A stretch of DNA of 64,000 nt, taken from the NCBI GenBank assembly GCA_016744065.1, contig JADGFA010000021.1, forward strand, positions 4,174 through 68,173. The letters run 5' to 3'. The DNA is from Gammaproteobacteria bacterium. Lineage in GTDB: Bacteria; Pseudomonadota; Gammaproteobacteria; SZUA-229. Shown one piece after another: positions 33,938-52,949 of this stretch (positions within the stretch are counted from its first letter, which is position 1; every line of letters starts with the position of its first letter). The notes below the pieces were generated by a model. It searched no databases, was not told the origin of the DNA, and saw only the letters and a list, made by a program, of their open reading frames with translations. Both the position numbers and the translations under genes were made by a program.

Positions 33938-34023
33938 GTTTGTTTAAAATGGATGTGGGGCCTTATTAAAATAAAAACAGATGCGGGTAACTGCTATCTG
34001 CAAATAGCTGTTATTTATAAACA

Positions 34024-34100
34024 ACTGTCATCCTGAGCGAATGCGAAGGATCTTCAATACCCGGATAGTTAAATTTTTCGCATTTGCTCAGAATGGCAGT
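34024..34100. repeat. palindromic repeat element, inverted orientation, one arm degenerate
   Basis: ACTGTCATCCTGAGCGAATGCGAAGGATC is identical to the 27637 copy. The centre TTCAATACCCGGATAGTTAA is the reverse complement of that copy's centre, and the far arm has decayed to ATTTTTCGCATTTGCTCAGAATGGCAGT. Confidence 0.8.
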
Positions 34101-34258
34101 TGCAAAGTCAATTAAATGCAGTGGAGTCACACTGTTTGCTTCACACTACTACTCATGTATTTAAATAAATGCTATCAGGTGTTGGTGTAGAACCTGACTC
34201 AGATTCTCTGCTTGTGCTCGCAGATTAGAGTACCAGGGGGACTTTGTTAGATATGCCC

Positions 34259-46651: not shown

Positions 46652-47002
46652 ATAGTGTAATTGGTTAAAGAAAAACGGTATTATTCAAAGCCTAAATAGA
46701 AAAGGAAAAATGAATGATAATTTTGAAATGGAATTATTCCTCCATTAGCTTAAAGGTGAAAGAACACACGAATACATTCTTCATTGGATTATTTGACAGC
46801 TGATAACTTTGAGGTGATAAAGGGTTGATAATATATATAACAAAGTATGTATTAAAAACTGGGTGGCTTCCAAGCGAAATAACTCATAACCCGTTGCTTC
46901 TGCTTCATAACAAAAAAACAATGATTTACCGATAGAAACGAGTTTACGCAAGGTTTTTTAAAGTTAGTTAATGTACAGTCAATACTACCGTATTGACGTA
47001 TT

Positions 47003-47215
47003 TAACTTCGATTATCATTGATTAATGATAAAACTATAGATTCTTTGTGGACGCCCATGCCGATAAAAAGTATATTAGCATATGTCATGTCGATTTCTGA
47101 GTCTGTTAATGAAGGATTATACTTTCGTATTATGATACTGGCTGCTCTGGTAGCTAACCCACGTTAGGACGGAGATCTGCACCCTGTTTTAAGGCAAGGG
47201 GAAATCATTATGTCT
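47003..47215 (-). mobile_element. IS110-family 5' end remnant, copy A (leader plus first ~28 codons)
   Basis: The reverse complement reads AGACATAATGATTTCCCCTTGCCTT...ATGACATATGCTAATATACTTTTTATCGGCATGGGCGTCCACAAAGAATCT = MTYANILFIGMGVHKESIVLSL..., the IS110 (DEDD) transposase N-terminal motif, followed by a stop. It is roughly 85-90 percent identical by eye to 48757-48970. Confidence 0.7.
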
Positions 47216-47234
47216 ATATTACTAGGAGAAAAAA

Positions 47235-47555
47235 GTGAGAAAAAAATTAATTTCAGCAATTTTTATATTCGGTTTCAGTTCCGTTGCTTATTGTAGCGGT
47301 CATGCAAACTATGATGTAGTAGCTGTTGGTTGTATGCCTAGTGGTACTTGTTATATACAAATATCACCTACCGCTACAAATACAGTCTGTACTCTAAAGG
47401 ACCAAATAAGATTTGATATTACTCTTCCTGGTTCAAAGCCTCAATACTCAGCAGCATTGTCTGCGCTTATGGCTGGTAAACAAATAACTGCAAATTTAAC
47501 TGATGTTTGCATAGATGATTTTCCTGTACCAGATTGGTTACAAGTAAATAAATAA
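47235..47555 (+). CDS. small secreted protein (106 aa), family shared with 27843-28184
   Basis: GGAGAAAAAA RBS, signal peptide, several Cys, and the segment KPQYSAALSALMAGK shared with the 27843 ORF. Confidence 0.55.
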   Translation: MRKKLISAIFIFGFSSVAYCSGHANYDVVAVGCMPSGTCYIQISPTATNTVCTLKDQIRFDITLPGSKPQYSAALSALMAGKQITANLTDVCIDDFPVPDWLQVNK

Positions 47556-47699
47556 AAATATAACAAATAAATCAACTTGACCATAATTAGCTACAATCTA
47601 AAAATTAGGCTGTAGCTAATTACGTCAAATTATTAAAGCATTATAAATAAAAAATATTTCATGATGTATGGGGTCATGCTTTTTTTGTCTTTTTGAATA

Positions 47700-48275
47700 C
47701 TAAGTCGGTTTTTCTTCACTGACAAGCATATCTATGAATTTTTCAAATCGCCTCTGTCTGGTTTCGGGTTTCTTCGCACTTATTAACCCGTGTGCAATAA
47801 CAGAACGACTCGATTTAGTGAGTGTTTCAAAAAACTGCTTCGCCTTCGGCCTGGTCTTTAGAGCTAATAAAAAATCCGCAGGCACTTTCATTTCACTTAC
47901 CATATAGGCGTTTTCCCACCTGCCGTCTGCCCTGGCGGCACGAACGTGTACGAGCCCTGACTCCTTCATTCGACCTTCGCTTATTAAACGCTCGACATGC
48001 TCAGTGTTCCTTTTAGACCAGTTGCTTCGCGTTTTCCGTGGAGTGACCCGCTGGAGATAGGCTTGGTCATCGAACGACTTCTTGACACCATCGATCCAGC
48101 CCTAGCACAAAATCTCAATCACGACATCGTCCCAGGTCACACTCGGAATCCCAGTCTTTTTCTTGAATATCTTCACCCACAGTTCACTTTCGATAAGGTG
48201 ATTGTCCTTGAGCCACTGGCTGAGATCTTTCGACAATGCAAAGGACATGATTTTCGCTGGATCGGGTTTAGGCAT
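47700..48275 (-). pseudogene. YdeI/OmpD-associated family gene with an in-frame TAG
   Basis: The minus strand reads MPKPDPAKIMSF...ELWVKIFKKKTGIPSVTWDDVVIEILC*GWIDGVKKSFDDQAYLQRVTPRKTRSNWSKRNTEHVERLISEGRMKESGL...RRFEKFIDML. The stop (plus-strand CTA at 48102-48104) interrupts the conserved LC-x-GWID motif. Confidence 0.75.
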
Positions 48276-48327
48276 ATGACACCATTATCTTTAGTTAGAT
48301 TTTAGTGTCCACTTTATCGGGGGAAGA

Positions 48328-48708
48328 TCAGCCTTGTGCTTCAAAGTCATCTTCACGTAGTTTTGCCGTGCCGTCAGATTGTATGACCCAAAGCTCTTTA
48401 TGGATAACCCCACTGGCTTTATTCATTTTCCAGCCAGATCTTAATACAGCACTCATTTCATCGAGCACTTCTACAACAGGATCAATGTAATCGACATCTG
48501 AAAAACCATCATCAATTAATTTTTGCCAAAATGCCGTTATTTCATTGGTTCCAGTAAATGTACCGAAAGGTTTTGCGTTCATAACTGCATTTTTTTCGTA
48601 TTGTGCAGCACAGCCCGCAGCATTTCCTGAATTAAATGCCTCTTTCCATTTAGCACTAGAATTACTTACTAAATTTAGGACAGTATTTTTTTGTTCTTCG
48701 CTAATCAT
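48328..48708 (-). CDS. NTF2/SnoaL-like fold protein
   Basis: 126 aa. The pattern KWKEAFNSGNAAGCAAQYEKNAVM...FWQKLIDDGF...VIQSDGTAKLREDDFE is typical of SnoaL/DUF4440-like proteins. Confidence 0.6.
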   Translation of the reverse strand: MISEEQKNTVLNLVSNSSAKWKEAFNSGNAAGCAAQYEKNAVMNAKPFGTFTGTNEITAFWQKLIDDGFSDVDYIDPVVEVLDEMSAVLRSGWKMNKASGVIHKELWVIQSDGTAKLREDDFEAQG

Positions 48709-48756
48709 GATTAATTCTCTAAATGAACTATTTTTTAATATTGTTTTTAAGGGCTA

Positions 48757-48970
48757 GACATAATGATTTCCCCCTGCCTTAAAAAAGGCTGCTGATCTCC
48801 GTCCTAACGTGGGTTAGCTATCAGAGCAGCTAGTAGTGCCATAATATGAAAGTGTAATCCTTCATTAACAGGCTCAGAAATCGACATGACACAATCTAAT
48901 ATACTTTTTATCGGCATGGACGTCTACAAAGAATCTATAGTTGTATCACTAGCCTATGATGATCGAAGAA
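48757..48970 (+). mobile_element. IS110-family 5' end remnant, copy B (inverted relative to copy A)
   Basis: AGACATAATGATTTCCCCCTGCCTT...ATGACACAATCTAATATACTTTTTATCGGCATGGACGTCTACAAAGAATCT = MTQSNILFIGMDVYKESIVVSLAYDDRR.... Similarity to copy A stops at the same point. Confidence 0.7.
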
Positions 48971-49102
48971 TAATTATCAAGACACCTGTTATTTATTTTT
49001 GTACATATTTCTATTTATCCTTCTGCACTATAACGCTGCCTTCAGCGGAGCAGGCGCATTAGCGACTGTGTCTGCTGGAAGGCATTGTTATATTTCGGCT
49101 CA

Positions 49103-50410
49103 TTACTCACGCATAAGTAGATTGTGAATTGCCATTTTGACATTATTAGATGACCAGTCAATTCCGCCGGCAACTGAATAGCGAATAAAACCTTTTTTAT
49201 CAAGTAAATAACTGGTGGGAAATGCAAAGACATTCCATTTTCTTGGTAACCCCTGGTCAGGATCTAGCAATACTGGGAAGTTCACAGGGTGTGTTTTAAG
49301 AAATCTATTTATATCATCAGGGTTCTCGCCTAGATTGATCGCCAAAATTTCAAACGGACTGTCTTTTAATTCCATATTTAAACCGGACATCGACGGCATT
49401 TCATGTACACAGGGAGGGCACCAGCTGGCCCAGAAGTTAACAACAATAACTTTTCCGGTATATTGAGAGAGTGAATGAGAGACGCCATTAATATCGCTGA
49501 GCGTGAAGTCATCAGGGCGAAGTTGTCCTGTATACTTTCGGAGAACCCCAGTTGTTTTTTTGCTTCTTTTACTAAAAGATTTGGTTGTTTTTATAGGTTT
49601 TCTTTGTTTTGCATATGCCGTGGTGAGCTCCATACTACGTATGATTTTATCACTAAAGGTTGATGCCATCCTGCTCTCTAAATCAGTTGCATCCAGCCGA
49701 AAAAAGAATCTGTTTCGTACATTTTCCAGCTTCTGTGCATATACATCACTACCGCCTTCCTCTAACGCGTCAATTGTACTCTTTATACGTAACGAAAGCG
49801 TTGATTTTAATGGCATATAAATAAAGACAGGAAGGTTTGTTGCTTTCGCAATGGCTAGAAATTGGCCACGATTACCAGCATCAGGAGTGTTTTTGAATAG
49901 ATTAGGTGAGACTAGAATAACGCCTGACAACACACTATCAGAGAGCAACTGCCATGTGTGAGCTGCCTCAAGCAAAGTACTAGCGCCATTGTCGTTACTG
50001 AAAAGGTAAATATTCTTATTCGTTTTTTCTGCATGAAGCATTAATTCAGAATAAGCAGATACGGGTATTTCAGCCATGCTTGATTCCACCTCAGGTAGAA
50101 ACCATGTGTCAAAAGGGTTTGCTATCCATGTTTCAATTCCTTTATCGCTTAATTTTTCAGCCAGCCCATTTAGCCCATCTGTTATCCCATGCGATGAAGG
50201 AAAAACAATAAGTAAGGAATCGCCATCCGCTTTATAAACGTTTACTTGAAGTTCAGAACCATCGCGAAGATTCACAGACATTATGTCTACTGCATAGGAT
50301 GTCTGTATGTACATTAGGGTTGCAATAAGGAGTAGTAATTTACTTAGCATAGACTTCTTTATTGAATATAACGATCGGGTTGGGCGACTTGTTATGTGTT
50401 TTTTAACCAT
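49103..50410 (-). CDS. exported two-domain protein: N-terminal alpha/beta-hydrolase-like region fused to a TlpA-type thioredoxin domain
   Basis: 435 aa with a signal/anchor. The C-terminal ~150 aa contain VVNFWASWCPPCVHEMP and the TlpA/ResA pattern. The N-terminal ~270 aa have no catalytic motif that I recognise. Confidence 0.7.
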   Translation of the reverse strand: MVKKHITSRPTRSLYSIKKSMLSKLLLLIATLMYIQTSYAVDIMSVNLRDGSELQVNVYKADGDSLLIVFPSSHGITDGLNGLAEKLSDKGIETWIANPFDTWFLPEVESSMAEIPVSAYSELMLHAEKTNKNIYLFSNDNGASTLLEAAHTWQLLSDSVLSGVILVSPNLFKNTPDAGNRGQFLAIAKATNLPVFIYMPLKSTLSLRIKSTIDALEEGGSDVYAQKLENVRNRFFFRLDATDLESRMASTFSDKIIRSMELTTAYAKQRKPIKTTKSFSKRSKKTTGVLRKYTGQLRPDDFTLSDINGVSHSLSQYTGKVIVVNFWASWCPPCVHEMPSMSGLNMELKDSPFEILAINLGENPDDINRFLKTHPVNFPVLLDPDQGLPRKWNVFAFPTSYLLDKKGFIRYSVAGGIDWSSNNVKMAIHNLLMRE

Positions 50411-50509: not shown

Positions 50510-50752
50510 TCACGTCACTAGCCGCATAAACCGTACCTTTTGGTGACTTATATCTTTTAATTTTACAAATGCTGCTGTTTTAACGGTGCTCCTTGTTTTT
50601 ATATATTTAAAAATAACTTCGTCTTCAAATGATACTGAGGCAGATGAAAGTGCTCTTATATAATTATTTATTCTTTCTCTCTCGGATTCAAGATTTCTTA
50701 TAAGCTCTGGAATACTGATGTATCTACTTTTTATGGGGCACTCTGGAGTACC
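50510..50752 (-). CDS. hypothetical small protein whose 5' end is replaced by IS3 sequence
   Basis: The ORF 50510-50842 reads through IRL of the IS, so only the part up to ~50743 is native. Rejoining the IS flanks gives a possible GTG-started ~80-aa ORF. Coding status uncertain. Confidence 0.25.
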   Translation of the reverse strand, partial: GTPECPIKSRYISIPELIRNLESERERINNYIRALSSASVSFEDEVIFKYIKTRSTVKTAAFVKLKDISHQKVRFMRLVT

Positions 50753-50803
50753 CCCGCTTTTCCGTACACTCAAAAAGGAGGATAATTCCTCCAGGAGTGT
50801 ACG

Positions 50804-51097
50804 ATGCAAAAACGACAAACATTTAGCAAAGAATTTAAACATGAAGCCGTTAGGCTGCTTGAAACAACAAACAAACCCGCGGCTGATCTTGCAAGAGAAT
50901 TAGGTGTGAGACGCAATCAGCTCTACAAATGGCAAGAACAACTACGCTCTAAGGGTGAAGACGCCTTTCCGGGCAAAGGCCGTCGAACAGAAAAGGATGA
51001 TGAAATAGCTCAATTAAAACGAGAGCTAGAGCGCGTCAAGGAGGAGCGTGACATATTAAAAAAGGCCGCGCTGTACTTTGCAAGGGAAACCGAGTGA
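50804..51097 (+). CDS. IS3-family transposase OrfA (HTH)
   Basis: 97 aa, FSKEFKHEAVRLL...LARELGVRRNQLYKWQ, and a leucine-zipper-like tail ending at the frameshift window ILKKAALYFA. Confidence 0.9.
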   Translation: MQKRQTFSKEFKHEAVRLLETTNKPAADLARELGVRRNQLYKWQEQLRSKGEDAFPGKGRRTEKDDEIAQLKRELERVKEERDILKKAALYFARETE

Positions 51098-51954
51098 AGT
51101 ACCAGTTCATCCTTGATCATCAAGATGAGCATACAACGACCATATTATGTGAAGCGTTAAATATAAAACGCAGTAGTTTTTATGATTGGAAGTTACGTAG
51201 CGAAAGTGAAAGTGATAAACAAAACAGTTACTTACTTAATCGCATCAAAACAATACATAAAGCATCGAGAGAGAATTATGGCGCCGTTAAAACCTGGAAA
51301 GCACTACGAGACTCAGGTGAAAGTTGTGGTTTACATCGAATTGAGCGACTAAGACGTAAACATGGAATAGAAGCCAAACGCATGAGGCTCTTTAGAGCCT
51401 CAAATAGCAGTCGAAATAGTGAGCCAGCAGCAGACAATATACTAAACCGTGAATTTATTGTGCATGCACCTGATCGCGTATGGGTGGGCGATATAACGTT
51501 TATCACAACGCGTAAAGGCGTATTGTTTTTAGCCACGATCATTGATCTGTATTCTCGAAAAATTGTTGGCTGGTCAATGAGCGATAAACAAAACAGGCAT
51601 TTAGTTAAAGATGCTTTGCATATGGCAATAGAAAACAGGAAACCTAAAGCTGGCTTGATACACCATACTGACCAGGGTGTTCAATATACCGCACGTGAAG
51701 ACAAGACAATACTAGAGGCTCATGACATGATTCAAAGTATGAGTCGAAAAGGTAACTGCCATGATAATGCGGTTGCAGAAAGCTTTTTCAGTCATTTAAA
51801 AAATGAACTGATATATCATCGAACCTTTGCAGATCGAGATGAAGCTCGTTCAGCAGTATTTGATTACATTGAAGTATTTTATAACCAGCAACGAACTCAT
51901 CAAACACTCGGCTATAAAACGCCAAATGATTATGAGATGATGAATGTTGCTTAA
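51094..51954 (+). CDS. IS3-family transposase OrfB (DDE integrase core), expressed by -1 frameshift
   Basis: Motifs WVGDITFI, HHTDQGVQYT and NCHDNAVAESFF. The frame is -1 relative to orfA, with the slippery heptamer AAAAAAG at 51058-51064. Confidence 0.9.
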   Translation: MKYQFILDHQDEHTTTILCEALNIKRSSFYDWKLRSESESDKQNSYLLNRIKTIHKASRENYGAVKTWKALRDSGESCGLHRIERLRRKHGIEAKRMRLFRASNSSRNSEPAADNILNREFIVHAPDRVWVGDITFITTRKGVLFLATIIDLYSRKIVGWSMSDKQNRHLVKDALHMAIENRKPKAGLIHHTDQGVQYTAREDKTILEAHDMIQSMSRKGNCHDNAVAESFFSHLKNELIYHRTFADRDEARSAVFDYIEVFYNQQRTHQTLGYKTPNDYEMMNVA

Positions 51955-52043
51955 CTAGGTGTACGGGAAAGCGGGTGTACTCCACTTGGACACTTAACGC
52001 CTTTTAAATATAACGTTTTAATAACCTAGTATTTGTTAGTATA

Positions 52044-52484
52044 TTAATTTATGTAAGACTCTGGACATTTGGCTTCTTTGCTAAAGTTATTTATACTTTC
52101 TATAAACACAACATGAATTTGATCAATTAGCCAATGTCCATTGTTTTCTCTATATTTTAGGCTGAAAATTAATGGCACTTTTTCTTTATCATAGCCATTA
52201 ATCGTTAGACAACCATTTTTATGGTTTATTTTTTCATAGTGTTTATCTACAGAATTCATATGATTTTTAAATAGTAACTGACTGGACGCATCAGGGTTTG
52301 TAACGTAATCATCACCTAAGAATGATTGGGTAAAGTATACTTTAGCAACATCTTTAATGTTATTTTCATTGGCTGATTCGCTATATAATATATATGATTT
52401 AAATAGTGTATATGGTGACTTGTTAGTAGTAGTACAACTTACAAGAAACAGAATAGAAAAAAAACTTAACATTATGCTGTTCAT
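52044..52484 (-). CDS. hypothetical lipoprotein (146 aa)
   Basis: Lipobox FLVSC after a signal peptide. Starts 2 nt after the upstream gene. The ENNGHWLIDQIHVVF tail suggests an NTF2-like fold. Confidence 0.55.
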   Translation of the reverse strand: MNSIMLSFFSILFLVSCTTTNKSPYTLFKSYILYSESANENNIKDVAKVYFTQSFLGDDYVTNPDASSQLLFKNHMNSVDKHYEKINHKNGCLTINGYDKEKVPLIFSLKYRENNGHWLIDQIHVVFIESINNFSKEAKCPESYIN

Positions 52485-52486
52485 TT

Positions 52487-52915
52487 TTAATGCCCCGTGA
52501 TTTTTTGTAATTCCAAATCATAAACATGATGCCTGTCTTTAAGCGCGCGTGCTGCTCTACATAAAAGCCCAGAACATGATATTATTAGCTCTTCCAGGTC
52601 AAAATCCCCCATTACGGTTAATTTCATATATACCAAATCAAAAGTAGCTCTATATCCTATATTCATGCCCCCTTTATTATTAAAAGAGACGCTAACTCGT
52701 TTTATTTTAGCACCAATTCTATCTAGAACTGGTGACCCAGTGAATGTGACAGTTCCTGCCGTTCCTGTAAGTGTGGCTTCACCATTTTGATCTATGGTAA
52801 GTTTTGTGCCTGCTTTATTTGCCATGATTTTTACTGTCATTCCTTTATCCTTTGAATAAGCCAACTCCAAAAACTTTGCAATTGTTATCTTCGCTTCTGT
52901 TCTTGTTAGATCCAT
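52487..52915 (-). CDS. hypothetical cytoplasmic protein (142 aa)
   Basis: ORF with a GGGGAAATC RBS region and no signal peptide. No recognisable family. Confidence 0.5.
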   Translation of the reverse strand: MDLTRTEAKITIAKFLELAYSKDKGMTVKIMANKAGTKLTIDQNGEATLTGTAGTVTFTGSPVLDRIGAKIKRVSVSFNNKGGMNIGYRATFDLVYMKLTVMGDFDLEELIISCSGLLCRAARALKDRHHVYDLELQKITGH

Positions 52916-52949
52916 GATTTCCCCCTGTTTTCTTATTGAATTGCTAACA

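Follow-up and report, generated by a model that had tools for sequence, protein, structure and literature searches.

The closest described counterparts of the sequences considered here are insertion sequences (IS) of the IS1111-attC group (Tetu & Holmes 2008; Post & Hall 2009; cited through PMC11187229 and PMC3001079), which insert at a fixed position at one end of integron attC sites and lie antisense to the array (PMC3001079, PMC11187229). Members of the IS1111 family have subterminal inverted repeats with 7 (or 6) bp beyond the repeat at the left end and 3 bp at the right end (Siddiquee et al., PMC11187229), and a junction promoter that arises from the joined ends in the circular form has been described for this family (PMC11187229). 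The guide RNA, or seekRNA, was mapped experimentally downstream of the gene in the IS1111 family and is found upstream in the IS110 family alone (PMC11187229). In the IS110-group elements IS621 and ISEc21, for example, the guide RNA is located 5' of the gene (PMC11187229).

Here, we describe a pair of inverted repeats in a 64,000-nucleotide stretch of DNA from a gammaproteobacterium of the SZUA-229 lineage (GenBank assembly GCA_016744065.1, contig JADGFA010000021.1, positions 4,174 to 68,173 of the forward strand), which we refer to in its full length as the window. Our reading, to which we assign a probability of about 0.85, is that both repeats are dead relics of one lineage of IS1111-group element of the kind that inserts into attC sites.

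A first-pass annotation, made from the letters of the window, had reported inverted copies of ~210 bp, each composed of a leader and the 5' end of an IS110-superfamily (DEDD) transposase gene facing outwards. The repeat is real, the outward orientation was upheld, and the gene content was borne out through homology to full-length relatives. Specifically, a repeat search of the window returned two adjoining pairs of inverted arms, one of 134 nt at 88% identity (47006-47139 and 48835-48968) and one of 81 nt at 93% identity (47136-47216 and 48755-48835). Alignment with MAFFT merged both into a single unit of ~211 bp containing a 3-nt indel, such that the repeat as a whole pairs 47006-47216 on the reverse strand with 48755-48968 on the forward strand at ~90% identity. 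A 24-mer of the unit occurs in just these two places in the 64 kb (expected number, 0). Each copy consists of a leader of ~127-130 nt followed by the start of an open reading frame (ORF; MTYANILFIGMGVHKESIVLSLINDNRS* in the left copy, MTQSNILFIGMDVYKESIVVSLAYDDRR.. in the right copy), and the two transposase stubs point outwards. Both copies begin precisely at the left terminus of the IS (AGACATAATGATTTCCCC...). There, at IS nucleotide 1, homology halts exactly in both, and the adjoining DNA is unrelated (GCCCTTAAAAAC.. vs. TATTACTAGGAG..). An exact search with a 22-mer from the leader gave no match in the genome collection, and blastn of the unit gave none among plasmids. Using an nhmmer profile of 15 full-length IS copies, we delimited the relics as follows.

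46863-47215, reverse strand: left IS relic, matching profile positions 1-345 from 47215 to 46863 (E = 7e-81).
Parts of the left relic, reverse strand: terminus (AGACATA) at 47215; subterminal repeat at 47195-47208; leader at 47089-47215; transposase start at 47088; remains of the gene to about codon 73.
48756-48968, forward strand: right IS relic, matching profile positions 1-201 from 48756 to 48968 (E = 8e-62).
Parts of the right relic, forward strand: terminus at 48756; subterminal repeat at 48763-48776; leader at 48756-48885; ATG at 48886; codons 1-27, then an abrupt break.

Full-length relatives of the element were found in other genomes and in metagenomes. None was found in this genome, and no other copy at 80% identity or more was seen in sequencing run X1 (SRR11072024). 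A scan of metagenomes with the 18-nt left end recovered 126 copies. The 15 full-length copies that we analyzed measure 1,560-1,578 bp, and 12 of them have an intact ORF of 371-372 aa. The transposase on contig L182 matched NF033542, "IS110 family RNA-guided transposase," at 256 bits (cutoff, 140), and a near-complete element is present on L084, a 137-kb JGI contig. The best tblastn match, from Pseudoalteromonas piscicida (L003), is a 384-aa ORF with the domains PF01548 (DEDD_Tnp_IS110) and PF02371 (Transposase_20); its leader also opens ..AGACATAATGA and holds CGTGGGTTAGC. When compared with 5.8 billion proteins, the ORF of the right copy (a 58-aa read-through) retrieved 22 short N-terminal fragments that have MTQSNILFIGMDVHKESIV.. 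in common and extend to ..RRYGSIGGTLDDFKKLLRKLVSTGKELFFCYEAGPCGYELY.. in their sequence. In the plasmid collection, the transposase is at most 54% identical to anything, and the best named match is ISSso6 at 47%. Stub peptides (28-38 aa) were not recognized as any IS family by Pfam or NCBIfam; in tblastn against plasmids, they align to residues 1-27 of annotated IS110-family transposases. By homology of these fragments (27 and ~73 decayed codons), the window stubs appear to belong to the IS110 superfamily.

Within the superfamily, the ends of the element point to the IS1111 group. In ~75 full-length copies, which fall into two subfamilies, the ends read AGACATA-[ATGATTCCCCCTG]...[CAGGGGGAATCAT]-ATC. 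The anatomy that they share is AGACATA, a 13-nt repeat (ATGA(C/T)TCCC..), the body of the element, the reverse complement of the repeat, and A(T/C)C; the full-length copies thus start with AGACATA plus ATGATT(T)CCCCCTG and finish with CAGGGGGAATCAT plus ATC. Beyond the 13-bp subterminal inverted repeats, there are therefore 7 nt at the left end and 3 nt at the right end, and both window copies carry the left half of this arrangement. When the ends are joined, TTGACA from the right end is followed, after 17 nt, by CATAAT from the left end, a predicted junction promoter in both subfamilies. The first-pass annotation had called the element IS110-type, a label that holds for the superfamily. Based on its ends and on a structured 3' region, the element belongs to the IS1111 group, not to the IS110 group. 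More generally, subterminal repeats with 7-nt and 3-nt overhangs offer a quick diagnostic of the IS1111 group.

The noncoding regions of the full-length copies are unequal, with a leader of 115-127 nt (ORF starts at 116-128) and a 3' region of ~325 nt. Among copies with 78-84% overall identity, the 3' region hardly varies. RNAalifold gives it a consensus fold of -55.7 kcal/mol with 61 pairs, 7 of them compensatory. Unpaired stretches of this fold hold an invariant GGCGTTA, which equals the bottom strand of the target across the insertion point (GGCGTT^A), and CCTAGA, which equals the left junction. The putative guide (seek/bridge) RNA of the element would thus be encoded in the 3' region, which the nhmmer profile did not find anywhere in the window. 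The leader gave a weaker picture. An alignment of 13 relatives and both window copies yielded -19.3 kcal/mol with a covariation term of +0.74, and 1 of 27 pairs was compensatory. The sole long-range stem pairs CTCCG with the Shine-Dalgarno sequence CGGAG and is lost in both window copies. Being short and having no covariation support, the leader does not look like a 5' bridge RNA of the IS621 type; it is better described as a probable short 5' untranslated region (UTR).

These results bear on the proposal that the leaders are orphan bridge-RNA-like loci marked by a conserved hairpin. The hairpin, CTAAC-GTGG-GTTAG, is indeed present in both window copies and also in L182 and L186. Its conservation did not hold, since the 5' arm is one base short in 10 of 13 full-length relatives (CCT-ACG..) and the hairpin is absent from the consensus fold. 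A search of Rfam at gathering thresholds gave 0 matches in the window; it gave none on L003 either, including the true 3' region. Rfam therefore has no model for this RNA, and its negative is uninformative. No transcript was found, and no RNA run contains the region. RNAalifold located the structured region of the relatives 3' of the gene and not in the leader. An orphan bridge RNA is thus unsupported, given a guide region that is 3' in the IS1111 group, a leader that lacks covariation, and a hairpin that is absent from most relatives. For the mining of such RNAs, the lesson is that the end to be searched depends on the group: 5' in IS110 and 3' in IS1111.

We then turn to the target. From 78 distinct right flanks, we obtained the logo AACGCCnnnnTAAGnGGC. 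Most right flanks have a partly complementary arm 84-113 nt further on, ending in TTGTTAG/Tnn (TTGTTAGnn), and the target sites appear to be classic chromosomal attC sites with bulged bases. On the other side, the flanks are the starts of different cassettes; they end in ..CT, and in many cases hold a ribosome-binding site with a start codon directed away from the IS. Every full-length copy sits in the attC R' core, GTT^RRRY, with the IS antisense to the cassette ORFs. The left end of the IS would thereby abut the start of the next cassette.

To search the window for attC sites, we used a covariance model (R1) that was built from 31 external attC sites and run with filters off; it is not IntegronFinder, and its E-values are rough. 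R1 identified two significant attC sites in the 64 kb, at 49032-49093 (31.6 bits, E = 7.9e-5) and at 47558-47642 (26.2 bits, E = 1.3e-3). They are on opposite strands, converge, and lie in or beside the repeat region. The third-ranked match, at 51996-52041, was marginal (E = 0.5). As a control, R1 was run on the surroundings of relics in L087, L151, and L209 and recovered 2-4 attC sites in a common orientation. Two simpler approaches were less useful: a crude scan for AAC...GTT palindromes did not rise above shuffled sequence, and a 32-nt half-site nhmmer profile missed the window sites. Just the cassette-side junction survives in the window copies. On the right relic, this flank (..AAGGGCT|AGACAT) fits the ..(G/C)CT| pattern of full-length copies. 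Elsewhere in the window, at 34023-34101, the attC model did not recognize a strong imperfect palindrome with AAC...GTT at its borders (AACTGTCATCCTGAGCGAATGCGA.. plus its partner).

The two stubs differ in extent. Three comparisons (blastn against L084, alignment to L182, and the nhmmer profile) place the end of the right copy at IS position ~201-212 (codon 27) and show that the left copy remains colinear with the IS to ~335-345 (codon ~73), at window positions ~46863-46875. Past the break of the right copy, the left copy reads CGAAGTTAAATACGTCAATACGGTAGTATTG.., colinear with CGAAACGAAATACGCCGATACGGTAGTATCG.. of L182, and the window ORF at 46781-46951 on the reverse strand (..LRKLVSIGKSLFFCYEAEATGYELFRL) corresponds to transposase residues ~47-73. 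It had been argued that similarity ends at the same point in both copies and that this identical truncation implies duplication of the 210-bp unit itself. The apparent common end point arises because the right copy is the shorter one and ends there, and since the truncations differ, the argument falls. The inner edges, moreover, coincide with the exact IS terminus and adjoin unrelated flanks, as is typical of transposition and not of segmental duplication.

Both stubs are decayed. The closest full-length copy, L182, is 88% identical to the right stub (212 bp) and 81% identical to the left stub (344 bp); in blastn, the left relic is 75-81% identical to the L084 and L182 elements. The left relic has lost a catalytic residue (D12 to G) and has a TAA at codon 29 and a 1-nt deletion that shifts the frame, the right relic has H14 changed to Y, and the Shine-Dalgarno GGAG reads AGAA in both. 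No other piece of the IS was found anywhere in the window, including with blastn against L084 and with the nhmmer profile. To judge from their sequence, the stubs have no guide RNA, no recombinase, and no right end, and they retain just the -10 half of the junction promoter, so they are probably inert as parts of a mobile element. Such remains are not rare. Of the 126 left-end copies, 54 run into a contig end. The other 72 have enough downstream sequence to be judged: 17 are full length, and 55 have an internal break, at IS positions 18-1514. Relics anchored at the right end also occur. Broken stubs are common and unremarkable, the ordinary debris of genomes. Tetu and Holmes are said to have found degenerate "footprints" of such IS frequently in chromosomal cassette arrays.

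The 1.5 kb between the stubs had been described as cargo. Because the IS termini face inwards, this segment appears to be flanking DNA that lies outside both elements and not the cargo of a composite element. It holds two convergent cassette fragments, a ydeI pseudogene, and a scrap of an IS3-family element. From left to right, the features between and beyond the stubs are as follows.

47216-47642, forward strand: cassette 1, beginning at the IS left end and including an attC found by R1.
47235-47555, forward strand: ORF of cassette 1, 106 aa with a signal peptide; no Pfam match.
47558-47642, forward strand: attC of cassette 1, with R'' ATATAAC and a degenerate R' (ATT for GTT).
47643-47699, no strand given: spacer of 57 nt.
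47700-48275, reverse strand: ydeI/OmdA-type pseudogene with an in-frame TAG at codon 58 (PF13376 OmdA, E = 6e-21, C-terminal part).
48276-48330, no strand: IS3-family terminal scrap of 55 nt, 87% identical to L152 770-821, an IS end upstream of the transposase start.
48328-48755, reverse strand: start of cassette 2, a SnoaL-like ORF (48328-48708) plus a 47-nt 5' leader that abuts the left end of the right IS.
48969-49031, no strand: segment of 63 nt between the break of the right relic and the next attC; no IS homology.
49032-49093, reverse strand: attC of 58-62 nt, the best R1 match in the 64 kb.

The SnoaL-like ORF matches PF12680 (SnoaL_2, E = 9e-6). The IS3 scrap is wedged between its stop and the start of ydeI and takes the place of the attC of the SnoaL cassette. 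The attC at 49032-49093 is directly downstream of a gene for a 435-aa protein with a redoxin domain (49103-50410, reverse strand), such that the top strand of the array is the reverse strand of the window. We considered whether the right IS once sat in this attC and then suffered an internal deletion, and rejected the idea: the 63 nt before the attC have no homology to the right end. Further along, an apparently intact IS3-family element occupies ~50750-52000 (orfA, 50804-51097; orfB, 51094-51954; HTH_Tnp_1 and rve). The marginal attC-like match at 51996-52041 adjoins this element and is downstream of an ORF at 52044-52484; the cassette-like region may reach ~53 kb.

The same spot was compared in other sequencing runs. 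The strain of run X4 is ~98% identical in the flanks and has the right stub with the same break and the SnoaL gene; it is without the left stub and cassette 1. In their place, an island follows the gene for an RRM protein (L092 7980-11871 vs. window 46655-49068) and encodes a 631-aa oxidoreductase, a DsrE-like protein, and others; R1 found no attC in it. In X4, an IS3-type IS of the same kind as the scrap at 48276-48330 is inserted at 49068-49071, inside the attC at 49032-49093, with a 4-bp duplication. This IS is multicopy in X4 (depth of 44-113x vs. 17-20x). In run X5, cassette 1 is present, and the sequence diverges from 47569, inside its attC. The site that follows the RRM-protein gene is a variable island. 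On a contig of run X7, the sequence after the RRM gene continues GTTATAACGCCGTTAAGCGG, which resembles attC.

Taking together what is directly seen, namely the anatomy of the stubs and the exact positions of their termini, the features of the family, the attC surroundings, and truncation to different extents, we propose the following history. The intact element would have been ~1.57 kb long and consisted of 7 nt, a 13-bp repeat, a 5' UTR of ~120 nt, a gene for a 372-aa transposase, a 3' region of ~325 nt with the guide RNA, a second repeat, and 3 nt. Its insertion point would lie in the attC R' core, where GTT meets RRRY; the element would run antisense to the array and create no target duplication. 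Two insertions, presumably independent, would have occurred beside two oppositely oriented cassettes, that of the 106-aa secreted protein (forward strand) and that of the SnoaL-like protein (reverse strand). The relics would be inverted and face outwards because the cassettes that they abut oppose each other and the IS inserts in a fixed orientation; the cassettes themselves may have come to converge by an inversion or another rearrangement. Deletions would later have cut the left copy back to IS position ~345 and the right copy back to ~201-212, with the loss of the right ends, the complete guide-RNA region, and the greater part of the transposase gene. Since then, the two remnants would have diverged by ~10% and gained inactivating changes.

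Several observations count against this history. The flank of the left copy (..AATAT|) is a poorer match to the usual ..GCCT|. That the window copies inserted into attC is suggested by the behavior of the family and by the neighboring attC sites, as the attC halves beyond their right ends are gone. Among the genes from ~38.4 to ~56.4 kb, which takes in about 8 kb to either side, the precomputed Pfam lists contain no Phage_integrase family, nor did they reveal a complete integron, with IntI and attI beside the array. The region is at best a small integrase-less cassette cluster with at least two attC sites recognized by the model. Finally, neither window copy has a closer relative than the other (90%), and the two have 7 derived states in common, compared with 11 and 13 private ones; an example of a window-specific state is CAGAAATCGAC in place of CGGAGATCGAC. 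The shared states, which include GGAG to AGAA, also fit the duplication of a dead copy or gene conversion.

We therefore weighed the possibility that a single dead relic of at least 345 bp underwent inverted segmental duplication or gene conversion and that the right copy was shortened afterwards. The shared substitutions, with loss of the Shine-Dalgarno sequence in both copies, are what this explanation would predict. They may equally be lineage-specific variants and thus markers of one parental IS lineage. In addition, both copies lose homology exactly at IS nucleotide 1 and adjoin unrelated DNA, which argues for two transposition events rather than a segmental duplication; each copy is in the canonical antisense place at the 5' edge of a different cassette; and the X4 strain has the right copy alone. 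On balance, we regard duplication of a relic as unlikely. The model of the first-pass annotation, which has a ~210-bp unit duplicated as such and takes the leaders for orphan bridge-RNA genes belonging to an IS110-group element, draws on the same mutual similarity and 7 shared changes, and the guide RNA of IS621 and ISEc21 is truly 5' of the gene (PMC11187229). Yet it is contradicted by break points that differ (~201-212 vs. ~345), by the IS1111 features and the long, structured, conserved region 3' of the gene, by a leader of 117-130 nt with a weak consensus fold and 1 of 27 pairs compensatory, and by the hairpin that most relatives are missing. We give it very little credence.

An equally slim chance attaches to the suggestion that the repeats drive reversible inversion of 47216-48755 (given earlier as 47216-48756) and thereby switch the secreted-protein gene, ydeI, and the SnoaL gene. 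While a 211-bp inverted repeat at 90% identity could in principle recombine, independent assemblies are all in the orientation of the window. Logan contigs of X1 (13,957 and 8,218 bp) cross each copy in this orientation; short contigs of X2 and X3 and the ENA scaffold L002 agree, and an X3 contig (48056-48264) bridges the middle. No second orientation or chimeric junction was seen in the contigs of X1-X5, which is weak negative evidence because contigs cannot exclude rare forms, and the only opposite-strand joints were the two copies aligning with each other. Furthermore, there is no recombinase nearby, and the genes have their own starts, so that flipping them would change nothing obvious. 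With one orientation in these contigs and IS termini that face inwards, the segment resembles neither an invertible segment nor a composite transposon.

The remaining alternative concerns why the stubs persist. They might have been kept since, read antisense, they express the adjacent cassettes where an integron promoter is absent, by way of an outward promoter, a Shine-Dalgarno sequence with ATG, or both. Consistent with this idea, the same antisense promoter-like sequence, TAGACG-17-TATATT, is directed into the cassette from both stubs (47048-47076, forward strand; 48926-48898, reverse strand). In antisense, the subterminal repeat reads CAGGGGGAAATCATTATG, which provides a Shine-Dalgarno sequence and, after it, an ATG; the ORF at 52487-52915 takes both its Shine-Dalgarno sequence and its start codon from a third exact copy of this 14-nt repeat (52914-52927). 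Against it, promoter-like sites are not enriched (10 vs. 8.9 expected), the frame opened by the antisense ATG either differs from that of the adjacent ORF or stops ahead of it at both stubs, an outward promoter proposed for ISPst6 tested negative (PMC3001079), and relics elsewhere break at any position, as neutral decay predicts. We consider retention for expression quite improbable. The broader notion that left-end stubs of attC-targeting IS act as portable antisense expression signals in an integrase-less cluster, of which 52914-52927 would be an example, is speculative to the same degree.

The third copy of the repeat is on the forward strand (ATGATTTCCCCCTG; minus-strand reading, CAGGGGGAAATCATGGATCTAAC) and had 0 matches in 100 shuffles. 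The ORF that it precedes encodes 142 aa with no Pfam match, and no other IS homology was found around 52914-52927. This copy could be a micro-footprint of the same IS or a coincidence.

Outside the window, closely related IS (~1.56-1.58 kb, with a 384-aa transposase; L003-L083 of the genome collection) are widespread in Pseudoalteromonas, Alteromonas, Glaciecola, Shewanella, Colwellia, Marinomonas, and Neptunomonas, always at the same attC position. Often they form a collapsed contig of ~1.5 kb, which implies many copies per genome. A match in Klebsiella (H59) is in a context that is not an integron. In many metagenomic copies, the ORF ends at a run of A after codon ~45 (..DDFKK; TTTTAAAAAA(A)TG), as at L084 4130-4140 (A6, which needs a -1 shift) and in proteins P0004-P0006, P0009, P0010, P0013, and P0014. 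Programmed frameshifting at this run was rejected because 12 of 15 full-length copies have an uninterrupted ORF of 371-372 aa; the run looks like a mutational hot spot instead. The window stubs derive from an apparently unnamed marine lineage of attC-targeting IS1111-type elements, which itself lies outside the window. The lineage is widespread in Alteromonadales, Colwellia, Shewanella, and metagenomes, and its nearly invariant 3' RNA region may interest those who catalogue programmable recombinases. For the window, the outcome is that a false lead has been removed, with no orphan bridge RNAs and no invertible cargo. The IS debris marks the edges of two convergent cassette fragments at a variable spot downstream of the RRM-protein gene.

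Among known systems, composite transposons and invertible segments resemble the locus in having two inverted copies of IS sequence around ~1.5 kb. Unlike them, the locus has termini that face inwards, no right ends, no transposase, and one orientation in the assemblies seen. IS110-group elements such as IS621 and ISEc21 belong to the same superfamily of RNA-guided DEDD recombinases (NF033542). Theirs is a guide RNA in a long 5' end, without subterminal repeats, whereas here the long structured region is 3' and absent from the window, and the 5' leader is short and without covariation. Clusters of attC sites without an integrase (CALINs) and chromosomal integron cassette arrays are similar in their short promoter-less ORFs, each followed by an imperfect palindrome (RYYYAAC...GTTRRRY), and nearby IS debris is typical of them; the window has two model-supported attC sites and one marginal site (51996-52041). 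In contrast to such arrays, the cluster in the window is tiny and degenerate, its two cassettes converge instead of being co-oriented, and one attC has a mutated R'. The closest likeness is to the IS1111-attC group (ISPa21, ISPst6, ISKpn4, and ISPa25), and it is a likeness of ends, layout, and target site. The window differs from described members of this group in holding two left-end stubs alone, in deriving them from a marine lineage, and in having no integrase nearby. What it shares with them through its full-length relatives is a DEDD transposase, the 7-nt and 3-nt overhangs, the junction promoter, a 3' noncoding region with motifs that match the target, and site- and orientation-specific insertion into attC, antisense to the array.

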